35,326 nucleotides of DNA from a virus (taxonomy: Duplodnaviria > Heunggongvirae > Uroviricota > Caudoviricetes), in the IMG/VR virus record IMGVR_UViG_2778261588_000004, positions 1 to 35,326 of that record, one strand, 5' to 3'. The notes below the pieces were generated by a model. The model had not been told where the DNA came from, made no database searches, and was given only the letters and a program-made list of their open reading frames with translations. Positions 17,741-30,001 of this stretch are shown piece by piece. The position numbers were made by a program, and so were the translations under genes. Within the stretch, counting starts at the first letter, position 1. Each line of letters begins with the position of its first letter.

Positions 17741-17849
17741 ATCCCGCCCCAACAGACCTGTGCTACCGGAAAGAAAAAAGGCCATCAGCAAAACTCTGAT
17801 GGCCTGAATCACCTTTACCAGTCATGTATGAAAAAATACGCACAATCAA

Positions 17850-17978
17850 TTGACAATAATTATCATTTTCATTAAAAATACCGCGTAACATTCTTATTTC
17901 ATGAAGAACCATACCCGCCAGCAACCTGAGTAGCAAAAGCTGTTCATCCCCCATATTTTTGCTGGCGGGTTCTTTTTT
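17850..17978 (+). ncRNA. Candidate small RNA unit: sigma70-like promoter plus intrinsic terminator, antisense to the late leader
   Basis: Perfect -35 TTGACA (17850..17855), 17-18 nt spacer, A/T-rich -10 (TAAAAA/AAAAAT ~17873..17879); hairpin ACCCGCCAGCAA (17913..17924) / TTGCTGGCGGGT (17959..17970) then TCTTTTTT (17971..17978); no ORF with an RBS inside. Confidence 0.3.
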
Positions 17979-18203
17979 CTACTGCCCTCCTCCCCAGGAA
18001 AAGCATTTCATTCTTTTCTCATTAATCGTTACTGGAGAGAAGGCGGGAAAAAGCCAGCTCTTTGGCCCTAAATAACAGCATGGCTTCAGTCCATACAGAA
18101 TCTGATTTTCCAGCTCACATAATAACCAGATGATGCAGTTGCAAAATCTGGCAACATCGGATTATTATGCGCCTGTGAAAATTTCTTCACGTTTTATTCC
18201 TTG

Positions 18204-18235
18204 CCGCCCGTGCCTCCCAGCGCGGGCTTTTTTAT
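18204..18235 (+). terminator. Weak plus-strand hairpin plus T-run (half of a back-to-back terminator pair)
   Basis: GCCCG (18206..18210) / CGGGC (18223..18227) with 12-nt loop, then TTTTTT (18228..18233). Confidence 0.3.
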
Positions 18236-18262
18236 CCAAAAAATACCCCTCCGGAGAGGGGT
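18236..18262 (-). terminator. Intrinsic terminator in the late-operon leader (tR'-like candidate)
   Basis: Minus sense ACCCCTC-TCCG-GAGGGGT followed by ATTTTTTGG; ~480 nt upstream of the holin start. Confidence 0.5.
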
Positions 18263-18552
18263 ATCATACAAGGGGATGACCATAATGCATGGTGCCGGGT
18301 GCCTCCCGGTGAGTCCGGCATCAGCATACGAACCCGCGATTATCCCAGAACTGACTGCTGATTCGCCCCGCCGCTTAGGGGGATTCACCATGCGTTTTTT
18401 TATTTACAAACTCTTCGCCAGACAAACAACCATTAACTGGCTGAATTGTGAGGTATTTCAATTTTTAGAAAACTGACCAACCTCCGCTTATACGCCGGGC
18501 ATGGAGCGGATACAAAAAAGCCCCGCAAAAGCAGATCAGAAGGATTCGTTGT

Positions 18553-18592
18553 AAAAAAAAAGCTGTCAGATTATCGCGCTAATCTGACAGCT
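18553..18592 (-). terminator. Strong intrinsic terminator downstream of the methyltransferase gene
   Basis: Perfect 13-bp stem AGCTGTCAGATTA / TAATCTGACAGCT (18561..18573 / 18580..18592), 6-nt loop, followed in minus sense by a run of 8-9 U. Confidence 0.65.
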
Positions 18593-18833
18593 ACAGCAGG
18601 TATCCAAAAACATGGGTGGAAACAATAAGTGAGTTAAGAAGACACGGTGTCGGATTTTTACCGATGAGCCGTTGGCGTGGTCAACCGTGACTCGCTTGTA
18701 TCAACGATGAATTAATGAAGCCAATCCTTTGCAGGCTATGTACAACCCACCACATCAGCCCTGCTGCATTGCAGGATACACTGTATCTGTAATCATTATA
18801 CGGCACAGACATCCCACCAATAATTGAATTAAT

Positions 18834-19895
18834 TCACAAAATTGTATTTGCTGATAACATACTGATTTCCTGGATGGTCTGATTAAACCGCTCTGTCTCA
18901 AGCTCAACACCTAACGCCCGACGCCCCAGCGCCATTGCTGCTTTTATTGTGGAACCGGATCCCATAAAGAAATCAGCAACCAGATCGCCGGGTCGACTAC
19001 TGGCATTGATTATTTGCCTGAGCATATCCGCCGGTTTCTCACACGGATGTTTACCCGGGTAGAACTGAACGGGTTTATGCATCCAGACATCGGTATAAGG
19101 CACGGAGACTGATACGGAGAAATAGCGCCGGAGAGATTTAAACTCATCCAGCAATTCAGAATATTTGCGATTCAGTGAATCATAAGATGCCACCAACTGG
19201 TGGTGTGGTTGTTCCAGTTGTTGTTCCTGAAACTTCTCTGCCGCTATACGGGAAAACAGTGCCTGTAACTTCCGGTAGTCAGCCTCATTCGGCAACTGCC
19301 ACTGACTGGCACCAAACCAGTGGGAAACCATATTTTTCTTACCTGTGGCTTCGGCAATTTGTTTTGCCGTTATACCCAGTTCGGCACGAGCATCCCTGAA
19401 ATACGATATCAGCGGTGCCATTATGTGCTGTTTGAGTTCCCTTTCTTTTGCCACATAGCCGTCACTTTTGCCGCGATATGGCCCCCGGTAATGTTCAGCA
19501 AACAGAACGCGCTCTGTGGCAGGAAAATATGCGCGCAGACTTTCTTTATTACACCCATTCCAACGTCCGGACGGCTTCGCCCAGATGATATGGTTAAGCA
19601 CGTTGAAACGTTCACGCATCATGATCTCAATATCAGATGCCAGGCGATGCCCACAGAACAGGTAAAGGCTTCCGGCAGGTTTCAACACCCGCCAGAACTG
19701 GGCCAGACAGTGGTCCAGCCACTTAAGGTAATCTTCGTCCCCTTTCCACTGATTGTCCCAACCGTTGGGTTTCACCTTGAAGTAAGGCGGATCGGTAACA
19801 ATCAGGTCAATGGAATCATCAGGCAGGGACTGAATAAAATGCAGGCAATCAGCGTTGATTAAATCAATACTGTTTATTTTTACAGTGCTTTTCAT
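18834..19895 (-). CDS. DNA methyltransferase, beta-class (probably N6-adenine)
   Basis: 353 aa; motif IV DPPY near the N-terminus (LIVTDPPYF) and AdoMet motif I FFMGSGST near the C-terminus, the beta-class order; no adjacent restriction gene recognised. Confidence 0.85.
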   Translation of the reverse strand: MKSTVKINSIDLINADCLHFIQSLPDDSIDLIVTDPPYFKVKPNGWDNQWKGDEDYLKWLDHCLAQFWRVLKPAGSLYLFCGHRLASDIEIMMRERFNVLNHIIWAKPSGRWNGCNKESLRAYFPATERVLFAEHYRGPYRGKSDGYVAKERELKQHIMAPLISYFRDARAELGITAKQIAEATGKKNMVSHWFGASQWQLPNEADYRKLQALFSRIAAEKFQEQQLEQPHHQLVASYDSLNRKYSELLDEFKSLRRYFSVSVSVPYTDVWMHKPVQFYPGKHPCEKPADMLRQIINASSRPGDLVADFFMGSGSTIKAAMALGRRALGVELETERFNQTIQEISMLSANTIL

Positions 19896-20420: not shown

Positions 20421-21023
20421 TTATTTAATACATTCTTTTGCTTGCGCATAATAAATTTTATGAGTATTAGCAAGCTTAACGAAGTTATACTTAACTGCCC
20501 CTAACAGGGTTCCAACTCTTGTATGCCCTTCCATTAAATGAAGCCCTGTTGTATTACTTTTCAGCAAAGCTCGATCTATAAAAAATGGAGGTTCACACCA
20601 TGTGCCAAAATTACACCAATGCGCTTTTATTTCATCATCCATAAATACATCGCCTTTACGGGTTGTGAAATCTTCAACGACCTCATGCAAAAAATCAGGG
20701 TAAGTAGCATTATCCCCGATAGTTAAAAAATTTTTAGTGGGAAGTTCAATCAATTTCCATTCGATTTGGTCAATATTAAGATCCCCATAAAGCTCCTGAA
20801 ATCTGTCATAACCTGCCAATCCATAATAAATCTCCTGAATTACAGGAGTGGGGGCGGCGATAGAATATTGCTCACGAAGTATTCTTTCAGCCTCAGGAGC
20901 TTTAAATATGGGTCTTTCTGAGAAAATAGGCAAAAGATCTCGGTATAACATCCATATCCCGTGTAAGAAAAAATAATTTAACCCGCTCGGCGGCGGGTTC
21001 TTGGACTCATCAACGGTAGACAT
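20421..21023 (-). CDS. Hypothetical protein (200 aa), AT-rich cargo gene next to Q
   Basis: Long ORF with clearly lower GC than flanking genes; possible promoter (TTGCAT-17-TAATAT) in the 81-nt gap after Q; possible PD-(D/E)xK-like residues (YPD ... DEIK); no family recognised. Confidence 0.55.
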   Translation of the reverse strand: MSTVDESKNPPPSGLNYFFLHGIWMLYRDLLPIFSERPIFKAPEAERILREQYSIAAPTPVIQEIYYGLAGYDRFQELYGDLNIDQIEWKLIELPTKNFLTIGDNATYPDFLHEVVEDFTTRKGDVFMDDEIKAHWCNFGTWCEPPFFIDRALLKSNTTGLHLMEGHTRVGTLLGAVKYNFVKLANTHKIYYAQAKECIK

Positions 21024-21104
21024 ACAAAGCCCATCGTTGGGAAAATATTATCCATATTTTTTGAGAAATGCAAGCATCATGTCGCCATCTTCGGTGAAAA
21101 TCAC

Positions 21105-21857
21105 TTATCTCGTCACCTTTCTCAATTGTGCTTCAGCGAATGCTTCTTCCTGCCAGCACTTTGTTACCAGTTTATCAATGACGTCTGCATATCCTTTGTA
21201 CCACTGATAATCAGTCAGGTCCGGTACCAGCTTCTGGACATGACGTCGTGCCAGTGTGGTCGGTAAACGACTAAACCGGTTTCCATTGCAACGCCCACAA
21301 ATCTTATAAACAGGCGCGCCATGAAGCCGGGTTCTTTTTTCATCCAGGACAATGCCTTTACCCTTACACCCTCTGCAAGCCGTGCTGACTTCTCCCTTAC
21401 CATGGCAATGCTGACATAATTCCTTCACCCACTCTTCCTTGATAACAGATTCCCCGCTTCTGGAGTGTTTCACCACTTCGCGCAATACACTATGAAATCC
21501 AGTACCAGCACAATGCTCACAGCGAGCCTTACTTGCCGCAGACCTGGAATAATCAGCAAAGGCAAAACTCACAAGGTAAGGGATGATCTGTAACCGGGTT
21601 TCTTCACTCAATTTGTTCAATGTCGGGTTATCCATTGCCATCGCGTAATTGAGCAGACCTTCAATCGCAAACTGAGGATCCTGAACACCAACTTTTGCCA
21701 GGAATAAGGCAAACCCAAGCGGTGCTTTCGACTGCACCATCCCCTGCGCAGCCATCACATCCGTAATCGTTAAACCACCTGAGCCTGTCGCCGGTGCGTC
21801 ATCGCTCAATTTTGGAGATTTTGGGGAGTAATATTTTGGTAAGGCTTCAAGGTTCAT
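21105..21857 (-). CDS. Q: Late-gene antitermination protein Q (long, zinc-finger-rich Q family)
   Basis: 250 aa with CEHCAGTG, CQHCHGKG, CRGCKGKG and CGRCNGN cysteine pairs; end of the nin-like region, upstream of the late and lysis genes. Confidence 0.7.
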   Translation of the reverse strand: MNLEALPKYYSPKSPKLSDDAPATGSGGLTITDVMAAQGMVQSKAPLGFALFLAKVGVQDPQFAIEGLLNYAMAMDNPTLNKLSEETRLQIIPYLVSFAFADYSRSAASKARCEHCAGTGFHSVLREVVKHSRSGESVIKEEWVKELCQHCHGKGEVSTACRGCKGKGIVLDEKRTRLHGAPVYKICGRCNGNRFSRLPTTLARRHVQKLVPDLTDYQWYKGYADVIDKLVTKCWQEEAFAEAQLRKVTR

Positions 21858-28001: not shown

Positions 28002-28688
28002 GTGAAAACATTGGCAGAAAGACTAAAAAGCGAAAGAGAAAAAGCAGGAATGAGTCAGGCGCAACTAGCTGAAAAAATTGGGCTTTCACAACAATCCGTA
28101 GCAAAAATCGAGAATGGAGAAACTCAACAGCCTCGGAAAATTAAAGAGATTGCTAAAGTGTTAGGGGTTTCTCAAAAGTGGTTGCAATTGGGCATTGAGG
28201 ATAACGCGTCTTTCCCAGACCTTGTTGTAAAGGAGGCTGAAAGTACAACATTAGATCCTGACATTTTTGCAAACATTCCTGTCCTAGATGTCGAGTTATC
28301 AGCGGGTAATGGATGTTTGGCTGAAATAGTTGAATCAACTGTAGACTGGTTCCCGCTAAGAAGGATTGATTTAAGAAAAGCTGGTGTATGTGTCTCCAAT
28401 GCAAAGATCGTAAAAATTTGGGGTAATAGTTTACTACCTGTACTTAACAATGGAGATTTTGTTGCTGTTGATGTTTCCCAAACAGTTCCTATTCGTGATG
28501 GGGATCTTTATGCTATACGTGATGGCGTATTACTTAGAGTTAAAATATTGATCAATTTACCTGACGGTGGTCTGATTCTAAGAAGTTTCAATAAAGATGA
28601 GTATCCAGATGAAATACTCACCTTCGAAGATAGGCGTTCCAGAATTCACGTTATAGGTAGAGTATTCTGGTCATCGCGCACTTGGTAA
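28002..28688 (+). CDS. cI: CI-type prophage repressor (HTH plus S24 LexA-like autopeptidase domain)
   Basis: GTG start with GAGGGGG 8 nt upstream; N-terminal HTH (MSQAQLAEKIGLSQQSVAKIENGE); Ala-Gly cleavage site (ELSAGNG); C-terminal S24 fold with candidate Ser (WGNSLLP) and Lys (LLRVK). Confidence 0.88.
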   Translation: MKTLAERLKSEREKAGMSQAQLAEKIGLSQQSVAKIENGETQQPRKIKEIAKVLGVSQKWLQLGIEDNASFPDLVVKEAESTTLDPDIFANIPVLDVELSAGNGCLAEIVESTVDWFPLRRIDLRKAGVCVSNAKIVKIWGNSLLPVLNNGDFVAVDVSQTVPIRDGDLYAIRDGVLLRVKILINLPDGGLILRSFNKDEYPDEILTFEDRRSRIHVIGRVFWSSRTW

Positions 28689-28861: not shown

Positions 28862-28920
28862 CGTCAAAACCACATAAAGTTGTTGACAACAACCAAAACA
28901 ACAACTAGATTACAACTTAA
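28862..28920 (+). promoter_or_regulatory. OL: OL operator / pL promoter
   Basis: Same half-site family as OR: near-perfect 15-bp palindrome GTTGTTGACAACAAC, ACAACAACT, CAACTTAAAGATGTTG; perfect -35 TTGACA (28873..28878), 17-nt spacer, -10 TAGATT (28896..28901), pointing away from cI. Confidence 0.6.
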
Positions 28921-29002: not shown

Positions 29003-29030
29003 AAAAAAGCGCCCAACAGGACGCTTAGCT
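29003..29030 (-). terminator. Intrinsic terminator after the orphan immunity-region gene
   Basis: Minus sense AGCGTCC-TGTT-GGGCGCT (one G-U pair) followed by TTTTTTGTTG; 35-60 nt downstream of the stop at 29065. Confidence 0.5.
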
Positions 29031-29064
29031 CTTTAACAATCTGGATATCCACAACAGTAGTAAT

Positions 29065-29556
29065 CTACAGATTGCCGTTAAGTTTTCTGGACAACTCCTC
29101 AATGGATGGAGGCGATACGTAATCCGGATTTTTATTCATCAGAAACTTATTTTCACAGTGGAGGCACCTGCTTTTATGAAAAAGCTCATCTTCGCTAACC
29201 GGGAATGGTTGAAGTATCGATACTATCTTTTGTCCAAAACATTTTGGGCAAAGATGCATGGTTATGCTGCCACCGTTCACGATTACCTCCTTCGAGTATA
29301 CAAAAGTACCCGACTCAAGTTGGTTAAGGATATAGCCTTCCGTCTGAGCCTCAAAGTTTTCGAATTCTGCAATTTTAGCTTTGAGAGAAGCATTTATTTC
29401 TTGATAAGAGCCCACCAGTTCAACGAGAGACACGCATTCGCGCTGAATAGACGCAAGCTTTGAGTTCAGCTCACCAATAGCCGCATTTACTTCAGCTTGA
29501 GTTTTTGCCTCGTTCATTAGTTTTGCAATCTGGGCTGTTTCACGAATAGCCGTCAT
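29065..29556 (-). CDS. Hypothetical protein: N-terminal coiled coil plus C-terminal CxxC...CxxC zinc ribbon
   Basis: 163 aa from the Met at 29556 (the track ORF reaches 29844 through GC-rich DNA); heptad-like N-terminus; CPKC ... CLHC pair; AT-rich relative to neighbours; antisense to pL; own terminator. Confidence 0.55.
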   Translation of the reverse strand: MTAIRETAQIAKLMNEAKTQAEVNAAIGELNSKLASIQRECVSLVELVGSYQEINASLKAKIAEFENFEAQTEGYILNQLESGTFVYSKEVIVNGGSITMHLCPKCFGQKIVSILQPFPVSEDELFHKSRCLHCENKFLMNKNPDYVSPPSIEELSRKLNGNL

Positions 29557-29591: not shown

Positions 29592-29650
29592 TTATTGTTG
29601 TTGGGGATATCCAGATTAACCGAATCCTTGTTGTTGGGGAATAACCAGGT
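29592..29650. repeat. Direct repeat pair upstream of the orphan gene
   Basis: TTGTTGTTGGGGATATCCAG (from ~29594) and TTGTTGTTGGGGAATAACCAG (from ~29629), two ~20-bp copies about 35 bp apart. Confidence 0.55.
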
Positions 29651-29865
29651 CCACCTCGCCTGATGTGGCTAAAAGCAGGCACATAACAGCTAAGTATTTT
29701 CAACCAGAGAGAATCCTTAGCGTTGTGGTGAATGCGGCTCAGCGCACGCGGGTTAAGGTTGAGGCTGACAGTCGACCTTCTGTGGATACCCACCCGCCTG
29801 GTGTGCAACCTTCGCCAGGCACCGGGAGGCACCCGGCACCACAACTTTATGCTGTGTGTAGTCCT

Positions 29866-29912
29866 GGCGGTACCAGCTTGTACCCTTGCTTCCGGCTGGT
29901 ACCGTCCTTTTT
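29866..29912 (+). terminator. Intrinsic terminator-like hairpin in the early-left leader
   Basis: Stem 29866..29877 / 29895..29906 (core GGTACCAGC/GCTGGTACC), 17-nt loop, then CTTTTT (29907..29912). Confidence 0.45.
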
Positions 29913-30001
29913 ACAAAACAGAGAAGAGCATCACCGGACGACGGGCTCATAACCCAATCCATCCGGGCGGCTGCCACCGCAGGTGTTCTTCTCTGTTTTG
30001 T
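29913..30001 (+). other. Perfect 15-bp inverted repeat enclosing a 59-nt GC-rich segment (candidate structured RNA element)
   Basis: ACAAAACAGAGAAGA (29913..29927) and TCTTCTCTGTTTTGT (29987..30001) are exact reverse complements; the enclosed segment has further internal pairings; ~50 nt upstream of the first early-left gene. Confidence 0.45.

Follow-up and report, generated by a model that had tools for sequence, protein, structure and literature searches.

The repeated 21-nt element of a lambdoid prophage belongs to a pseudoknotted RNA domain of the STnc100/PasD family

What is the role of a short hairpin sequence that recurs, with the same RNA sense, in two oppositely transcribed operons of one prophage? 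The window, i.e., the whole stretch of 35,326 nt analysed here, represents a lambdoid prophage of the SfV/SfIV/mEp460/PhiR49 kind. Across this window the 21-mer CACCGGGAGGCACCCGGCACC was found exactly at two positions, once on the plus strand and once, reverse-complemented, on the minus strand (Table 1), as the initial annotation had reported. No further match with up to three mismatches exists in the window, and none is expected in shuffled sequences. The common RNA sense of both copies was borne out as well: cI and the yfdP/Q/R-like genes are encoded on the plus strand, and Q, methylase, holin and lysozyme on the minus strand. Both copies lie ahead of intrinsic terminators, formed by 29868-29878 and 29894-29904 with a U-run and by 18265-18242 with a U-run, respectively. 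The general description as an RNA-level element that precedes terminators in two operons is in good agreement with our results, in which its occurrence is far beyond chance and it is conserved in many phages. Its interpretation, for which a self-contained antitermination hairpin, a processing signal, a protein-binding site and a mosaic-junction linker had been put forward, has to be revised in several points.

We conclude with high confidence that the 21-mer is not a free-standing hairpin but the 3' end of a pseudoknotted RNA domain of approximately 115 nt, which is present in the window as two diverged paralogues. With the same high confidence, it is identified as hairpin P5 together with the inner segment of P1, which is the closing helix of an STnc100/PasD-family domain.

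Two diverged copies of one structured RNA

In a pairwise alignment, the ungapped identity between both loci is restricted to 22 nt. Approximately 90 nt upstream of each 21-mer, a GGUGAAU box and a GC hairpin were found, and the bases 5' of the box pair with those 3' of the 21-mer to form P1 (GCAUGGUG/CACCAUGC in the late copy, GUUGUGGUG/CACCACAAC in the left copy). The same layout, with compensatory differences, occurs in ST64B, in phage P1 and in one Klebsiella phage. A scan of the window with Rfam gave a single match, RF02076 (STnc100), with 115 bits over model positions 1-206 at 18422..18234(-). In a permissive scan the left copy also matches RF02076 over model positions 1-206, at 29692-29915(+), with 42.4 bits (E 4.9e-8), which is below the STnc100 gathering score of 47 bits that the late copy exceeds. 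Our own covariance model R1, built from family members, detects exactly two copies in the window and assigns 90.7 bits to the late copy and 77.7 bits to the left copy, which is clearly a full-length, diverged STnc100 homologue. From the common layout, the P1 pairing and the family match it follows that the two loci are diverged paralogues of one structured RNA. The repeat is the best-conserved part of a longer homology, as had been considered at the outset, but this homology is visible as shared structure and not as a plain sequence block.

The late copy is a member of a known Rfam family. It shares with RF02076 the same helices, the consensus with an invariant CACCGGGAGGCACCCGGCACC, the 3' terminator and the prophage setting near Q and lysis genes. 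The left copy differs from STnc100 in its score below the cut-off, an extra 5' helix, a different P2, the lack of an own promoter and its location in the early-left operon; it is a new member below the threshold and extends the family to a context for which it had not been described. The finding largely resolves into a known thing, namely two copies of a prophage RNA listed in Rfam, while the family itself proves broader than the Rfam model and includes a left-type branch in early-left operons.

With regard to other Rfam families, including riboswitches, the window contains, apart from STnc100, only sub-threshold matches to DicF and ftsZ-DE. The latter (RF02985, 18.1 bits, 29690-29749(-)) lies opposite to the left copy. 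Read as reverse complement, the 5' strand of the left-type P1 with P2 is similar to the ftsZ-DE consensus, and ftsZ-DE may represent a related element that was assigned to the other strand. An exhaustive R1 scan of the window revealed no third copy beyond a relic-like match of 14.5 bits (E about 0.02) at 18638-18790(-), just upstream of the late copy, which could represent a decayed tandem unit. The related core GTGCCTCCC, previously placed at 18211-18219, is actually located at 18210-18218. As a family feature it was rejected, being present in 3 out of 120 relatives against a background of 4.8%.

Table 1. Coordinates of the two units and of the associated transcription signals in the window.
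Feature	Position	Strand	Basis or remark
Late copy of the STnc100-type core domain	18283..18397	-	Rfam, own model, fold, sequence
Late P1	18393-18386 paired with 18294-18287	-	
Late GGUGAAU box	18389-18383	-	
Late P2	18382-18366	-	
Late pseudoknot	18362-18357 paired with 18325-18320	-	
Late P4	18335-18329 paired with 18317-18311	-	
Late P5	18309-18295	-	
Late 21-mer	18291..18311	-	last P4 base, A, P5 (CCGGG-AGGCA-CCCGG), CACC (first 4 nt of the P1 3' strand)
Intrinsic terminator of the late-copy RNA (GAUACCCCUCUCCGGAGGGGUAUU and U-run)	18234..18265	-	within the Rfam STnc100 match
Conserved upstream block CTCACAATTCAG, CACAAT at 18450-18445	18423..18460	-	common to one late-type subclass; presumed promoter region of the late copy
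Q-dependent late promoter and leader	20968..21073	-	comparison with the HK022 pR' region
pL-like promoter TTGACA-17-TAGATT	28883..28911	+	about 800 nt upstream of the left copy
Extra 5' helix P0 (GCUAAG 29689-29694 / CUUAGC 29716-29721)	29689..29721	+	abuts P1
Early-left copy of the core domain	29719..29848	+	Rfam sub-threshold, R1 model, sequence
Left P1	29722-29730 paired with 29837-29845	+	
Left GGUGAAU box	29727-29733	+	
Left P2 region	29734-29752	+	
Left pseudoknot	29755-29761 paired with 29806-29812	+	
Left P4	29796-29803 paired with 29813-29820	+	
Left P5	29822-29836	+	
Left 21-mer	29820..29840	+	sequence
Intrinsic terminator after the left copy, weakly DicF-like (UGGCGGUACCAG)	29853..29912	+	fold

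Fold, covariation and the conserved hairpin

The domain is ordered as P1, GGUGAAU box, P2, pseudoknot, P4 and P5, which runs directly into the 3' strand of P1. Further consensus details are the junction J1/2 (AAU), a GCG-containing P2 loop and a variable hairpin before P4; P1 usually comprises 7-9 bp. Relatives were collected from viral contigs with two patterns, one anchored at both ends and the other at the 5' box only. Most sequences were gathered with patterns that fix P5 or the 5' box, which biases the collection toward the conclusions drawn from it. RNAalifold, applied to 22 diverse members, recovered P1, P2, P4 and P5, and 12 of the 22 pairs are compensatory. In an alignment of 94 distinct sequences, 96.9% of the cells pair compared to about 46% in slid controls, and double changes were counted in 262 cells versus 74 in shuffles; this alignment was fitted to the covariance model and hence leans toward the structure. 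The STnc100 architecture with closing helix, 5' hairpin, P4 and CCGGG/CCCGG hairpin was recovered together with its covariation.

The pseudoknot, which is absent from the Rfam structure, is formed by the segment after P2 and the P4 loop. Among the relatives it is realised by at least a dozen distinct pairs of complementary sequences, e.g., AUCAGC/GCUGAU in the late copy, AAGGUUG/CAACCUU in the left copy, and CCAGUC/GACUGG or CAGUUAA/UUAACUG elsewhere. Since its register shifts by one column between sequences in the MAFFT alignment, it was evaluated by permutation of cognate and non-cognate partners. For the pseudoknot as well as for the variable outer pairs of P1, cognate pairing exceeds non-cognate pairing, and none of 5000 permutations reaches the observed value. 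Overall, P1, P2, P4 and the pseudoknot covary strongly, and P5 is conserved as sequence. The combination of a covarying, unannotated pseudoknot with a sequence-frozen hairpin fits an RNA with a specific partner better than a seed-based sRNA.

The constancy of P5 was assessed in the sample anchored on the 5' box only. There, the 21-mer is present within four substitutions in all 104 unique elements, and the 15-nt hairpin CCGGGAGGCACCCGG is exact in 95 of them. The rare P5 changes in this sample are not compensatory, and in the set of 94 sequences P5 shows no covariation. A compensatory stem change with the loop retained was found in Qin of K-12 (CCUGG-AGGCA-CCAGG). With respect to the proposed 5-bp stem with AGGCA loop, the predicted fold of the late copy contains this hairpin, whereas the single-sequence minimum free energy structure of the left copy favours another pairing; there, the hairpin is backed by the family consensus. 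A divergent subtype of the domain occurs in mEp460 and phiSTEC1575-Stx2k (L285 2052-2192; L286 2064-2192). It scores about 25 bits, keeps P1 and GGUGAAU, carries CCGG-AGAUCAGCA-CCGG as its last hairpin, and fills the same slot before the same terminator and yfdP. The compensatory Qin stem and this hairpin variant indicate a structural role of the hairpin that stacks on P1, to which the main family adds a fixed sequence. Since P5 is fixed in sequence while the other helices covary, a conserved protein-binding site, as suggested initially, is possible.

Is the hairpin used outside the domain? The 19-nt core was searched against one genome per bacterial species. Matches stem almost only from Enterobacterales (Enterobacteriaceae, Erwiniaceae and Yersiniaceae) and from a few high-GC or odd taxa. 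By a simple test, the 5' box is present in 107 of 132 testable core matches; of the 14 Enterobacterales cases left over by this test, 13 are full domains with scores of 60-102 bits. In taxa such as Streptomyces and Planctomycetes, the match is confined to the 16-nt hairpin, as predicted by chance. Random scatter of the 21-mer does not describe these data, as Enterobacterales matches are essentially confined to the full domain, and an autonomous hairpin module was rejected on the same grounds. Two further candidate identities were dismissed. A small ORF translated from the GGAGG of P5 is not conserved in the family: a downstream AUG is present in 44 of 100 late-type sequences and in none of the 20 left-type ones, and the peptides are unrelated. 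A tRNA-like or tmRNA-like gene was likewise discarded, because ARAGORN finds no tRNA-like gene in the window, and the stacking of P5 on P1 is a loose topological analogy only.

Genomic context of late-type and left-type units

The late copy had been assigned to the late leader, but the Q-dependent pR' leader lies elsewhere, at about 21073-20968. Its promoter has the form TTGCAT-17-TAATAT, with the -35 box at 21073-21068 and the -10 box at 21050-21045; six bases after the latter, the pause element AACGAT follows at 21038-21033, and tR' is located at 20999-20968. In sequence, this arrangement can be aligned with pR' of HK022. The Q gene (21105-21857) belongs to PF03589, as does Q of HK022. A position directly after Q, a Q site embedded in the promoter and a -10-like pause are found at 21073-21033 and are lacking at the late copy, which lies 2.6 kb downstream of pR', beyond one ORF, the methylase and two terminators. 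The ORF listed at 20421-21023 starts inside the pR' leader; its true start is probably located further downstream. A Q-specific RNA site or a pR' leader was rejected as identity of the element, and a Q-specific role in general is unlikely, given the large distance between the genuine pR' and the late copy downstream of it, and the occurrence of such units behind Q genes of all three families.

Among 161 elements, 130 (81%) have a terminator within 170 nt, compared to 20% of random windows, with a median distance of 29 nt after P5. Late-type copies exhibit promoter-like sequences at fixed distance upstream, as judged from sequence. In one late subclass, TTGACN-17/18-TAAATT ends 8 nt before GGUGAAU; given this spacing, the RNA would begin at P1. 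The subclass of the window has the conserved CTCACAATTCAG block about 55 nt upstream, and the Rfam model starts directly after it, at 18422. The nearest upstream genes of late-type copies are Q of PF03589, PF06530 or PF06323, or cargo (TerB, methylase, Stx2A). In the window, the late unit lies within the late operon, flanked by cargo genes on one side and by the lysis cassette on the other. With its promoter-like block and its own terminator it would be self-contained, while the left unit would be embedded in the pL transcript. In several contigs, 3-5 equally oriented units follow each other in tandem at intervals of about 255 nt (L072 4376-5463; L025 369-992; L037 1722-2345; L014 2322-3354; L206, L235, L190, L241). 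Several of these units, in L025, L037 and L072, are closely preceded by -10-like sequences.

Short pR' transcripts are known to be co-opted as sRNAs, as in lambda 6S RNA and StxS. These resemble the late unit as small RNAs that terminate in the late region of lambdoid prophages and are expressed in lysogens. They differ in that the true short pR' transcript is a separate unit of about 100 nt after Q, to which the STnc100 unit is additional and independent. HK022 contains no STnc100-type copy. In Klebsiella phage KO-TP1, a Q82-type gene is immediately followed by an isrJ-family RNA (L003 2209-2285; RF01393, 63 bits) with a terminator at its end, and then by the STnc100 unit; the isrJ-type RNA resembles a short pR' transcript belonging to this type of Q.

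Left-type copies have no promoter at fixed distance and instead exhibit an extra covarying helix directly upstream of P1. This helix is P0 in the window, and equivalents with different sequence occur in ST64B, P1, L008 and L023. The copies are situated downstream of cI-like repressors (28002-28688 on the plus strand of the window) and precede yfdP/Q/R-type genes in the window, ST64B and the SfV group, xisE-intE in e14 of K-12, and dicB in Qin of K-12. The operons of ST64B, e14, Qin and P1 lack a recognisable N gene. Some relatives, e.g., in Qin (dicB) and P1, have no terminator and lie directly before a coding gene. The left-type sequence was found in 1914 of 5426 complete E. coli genomes (35%), where it is annotated everywhere as hypothetical protein. 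In e14 (L164 3030-3224), the gene annotated as ymfH overlies the left-type copy, whose P5 is damaged (GGGGGCA, CCCGA); this ORF annotation is probably spurious. In K-12, the family thus underlies the 'ymfH' ORF of e14, and a related copy fills the dicF-dicB spacer of Qin (L163 2884-3085), with the core directly after dicF.

DicF (RF00039, Qin dicB operon) resembles the left copy in its early-left-type operon with an internal terminator ahead of downstream genes. The left terminator of the window, UGGCGGUACCAG, and DicF, UGGCGGUAUCAG, share UGGCGGUA(C/U)CAG. However, positions 29853-29907 score 15.9 bits (E 0.66) against a cut-off of 48 bits, compared to 76.7 bits for genuine dicF, and the order of core and terminator in Qin is reversed with respect to the window. 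The left unit, 29689-29912(+), ends at this terminator ahead of the yfdP/Q/R-like genes. It is presumably transcribed from the pL-like promoter, of whose transcript the first approximately 60 nt are common to the window and ST64B. A cargo gene on the reverse strand (29065-29556, phrog_1244) is inserted between pL and the left element. Upstream of this gene, two copies of TTGTTGTTGGGGA at 29595-29607 and 29628-29640, 33 nt apart, could serve as operator or regulatory repeat.

Possible roles of the domain

Our preferred reading as a whole, to which we assign a probability of about 0.6, is that the 21-mer represents P5 and the inner P1 of an STnc100/PasD domain and that this domain serves as scaffold of a discrete product RNA, most likely a regulatory one. 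For the product-RNA mechanism itself, which we infer, our confidence is moderate. Transcription would stop at the downstream terminator and release a discrete, stable and compact RNA that acts as a product and not as a signal to the polymerase. In such an RNA, P1 would clamp the ends, P5 would stack on P1 and the pseudoknot would lock the core. The fold is kept by compensatory changes, and P5, GGUGAAU and the GCG-containing loops are fixed in sequence, which suggests a partner contact common to all hosts. Candidate partners are Hfq, as documented for homologues, another protein, or the ribosome, which is conceivable because GGAGG represents a Shine-Dalgarno core. PasD, a reported structural homologue of STnc100, is verified by Northern blot and Hfq-dependent in a lysogen (PMC8550237; bioRxiv 10.64898/2026.05.13.724894). 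EDL933 expresses 11 STnc100 copies, one of them Northern-verified (PMC5331693), and the STnc100 promoter regions of LT2 were examined by sigma-factor ChIP-exo (PMC10794520). Sequence, homology, covariation and context were computed here, and lysogen expression and Hfq dependence are taken from these reports on homologues. The promoter-like sequences, terminators, arrays, independence of Q type and accumulation of homologues in lysogens favour the product RNA. Other observations speak against it. The left copy has no detectable promoter and its operon is repressed in lysogens, so that it cannot represent a constitutive lysogen sRNA; relatives without terminator before coding genes (Qin dicB, P1) would better suit a 5'-UTR role; and a fold of about 115 nt that contains a pseudoknot and about 35 fixed nucleotides is uncommon among Hfq-dependent base-pairing sRNAs. 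In such sRNAs, the seed is normally the conserved part.

Alternatively, the folded RNA could act in cis, alone as in put or with a protein as in the N-nut system, and give read-through of the downstream terminator by antitermination or attenuation, and would then take the place of the N system that the early-left operon of these phages lacks. The position before a terminator in 81% of cases fits this explanation, as does the place of left-type copies between repressor/pL and early-left genes of N-less phages (ST64B, SfV group, e14, Qin). Furthermore, mEp460 and the Stx2k phages carry the divergent domain and not an N gene in the same slot, the fixed P5 sequence would be expected of a polymerase or protein contact, and a put-like RNA was suggested for ST64B-like N-less left operons (PMC12315714). 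The element resembles lambda nut in its 5-bp stem, 5-nt loop, location on the sense strand of a phage operon leader and downstream terminator, and HK022 put in being a structured RNA of about 70-115 nt in an early-operon leader of an N-less lambdoid phage, with terminators downstream and more than one sense-orientation copy per genome. The self-contained boxB-like hairpin of the initial annotation, though, finds no support. BoxB is a short stem with a GNRA-like pentaloop (GAAAA, GAAGA, GACAA), whereas the loop here is AGGCA in both copies and nearly all relatives; no boxA adjoins either copy, boxA-like 9-mers being at chance level and the nearest one, at 29027-29039, lying about 780 nt upstream; and no N-type protein was recognised. 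Among the early-left ORFs of the window, Pfam and PHROGs gave no N-type family, a weak negative since N proteins are diverse, and no plausible N-like small basic ORF is found in the ST64B leader. The exhaustive model scan of the window gave no copy after pR or in the early-right operon, late-type copies lie in a Q-controlled operon where N is irrelevant, and the hairpin in Enterobacterales is essentially always part of the domain of about 115 nt. Neither locus has similarity to the HK022 genome, including putL, which was reconstructed at about 28312(-) of that genome via the residue numbering in PMC9378689, so that identity with put was rejected; put also has two stems instead of a pseudoknotted five-helix domain and does not share the presence in the late region and absence after pR. 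Moreover, healthy lysogens accumulate the homologues as discrete RNAs that end at a terminator (PMC8550237, PMC5331693). If late-type units were constitutively self-antiterminating, the lysis genes would be expressed, at odds with such lysogens, and the late-type core evidently terminates efficiently ahead of the lysis genes. The independence of Q family and the separate pR' add to this, and the terminators vary while P5 is constant, so that, by informal inference from the terminator survey, a conserved alternative antiterminator/terminator pairing is not evident. On balance, we regard antitermination as unlikely, although it is the main rival reading for the left-type copies and worth keeping in view.

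A role in processing or stability, with the P1-closed domain as entry site or barrier for a nuclease (RNase III, E or P), appears rather improbable to us. Adjacent RNAs, e.g., a DicF-like sRNA, would have their ends set by the domain, or the 5' end of a downstream mRNA would be shielded by it. In the late subclass with the -10-like sequence 8 nt before GGUGAAU, P1 would enclose the 5' end; the terminator of the left copy has a weak similarity to DicF, and some copies lie directly before coding genes without terminator. The 3' end of DicF can arise via RNase III processing, and in Qin, where the core lies between dicF and dicB, P1 is extendable to 17 bp just 3' of DicF; so extended, and adjacent to the 3' end of DicF, this helix could be a target of RNase III. 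Elsewhere, P1 with its usual length is too short for RNase III, a simple protective hairpin needs neither a pseudoknot nor about 35 fixed nucleotides, and the window has no tRNA-like gene according to ARAGORN. Selection at the DNA level, i.e., a conserved site for homologous recombination between phage modules, is very improbable. It is true that, in BLAST comparisons with phages, only about 18157-18337 of the region 17800-18900, a part that lies in the element, is common to Stx phages, and that left homology breakpoints at about 29597, 29651 and 29865 flank the core. Compensatory changes in four helices, however, indicate selection on RNA pairing and not on DNA identity, the element keeps a constant orientation to transcription and is accompanied by promoter-like and terminator features, and recombination at a conserved gene is an expected by-product. 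The mosaic-junction linker survives as such a by-product only; as primary role it is largely refuted by covariation.

A bolder variant, which we consider speculative and rather unlikely, sees the STnc100-type domain not as a usual base-pairing sRNA but as a dedicated structured RNA with a specific macromolecular partner. The left type would be a new cis-acting class with put-like function and unrelated fold that governs passage of the early-left terminator, and the late type would comprise autonomous derivatives. If so, the left-type RNA would guard yfdPQR-type genes, xis-int of e14 and dicB of Qin in many N-less lambdoid prophages, and the late-type units would be derivatives that are sometimes amplified in arrays. 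As the element sits exactly at the terminator heading the early-left operon in N-less phages of the ST64B/SfV/e14 type, terminator passage is directly testable there.

One minor observation concerns the pL leader of the window. The consensus of rrn-type boxA is UGCUCUUUAACAA, and AGCTCTTTAACAA at 29027-29039(+) matches it in 12 of 13 positions, for which a rough estimate gives about 0.04 occurrences by chance in the window. This boxA-like sequence lies on the sense strand of the leader, approximately 110 nt after the pL-like promoter and right after the bidirectional terminator of the cargo gene.
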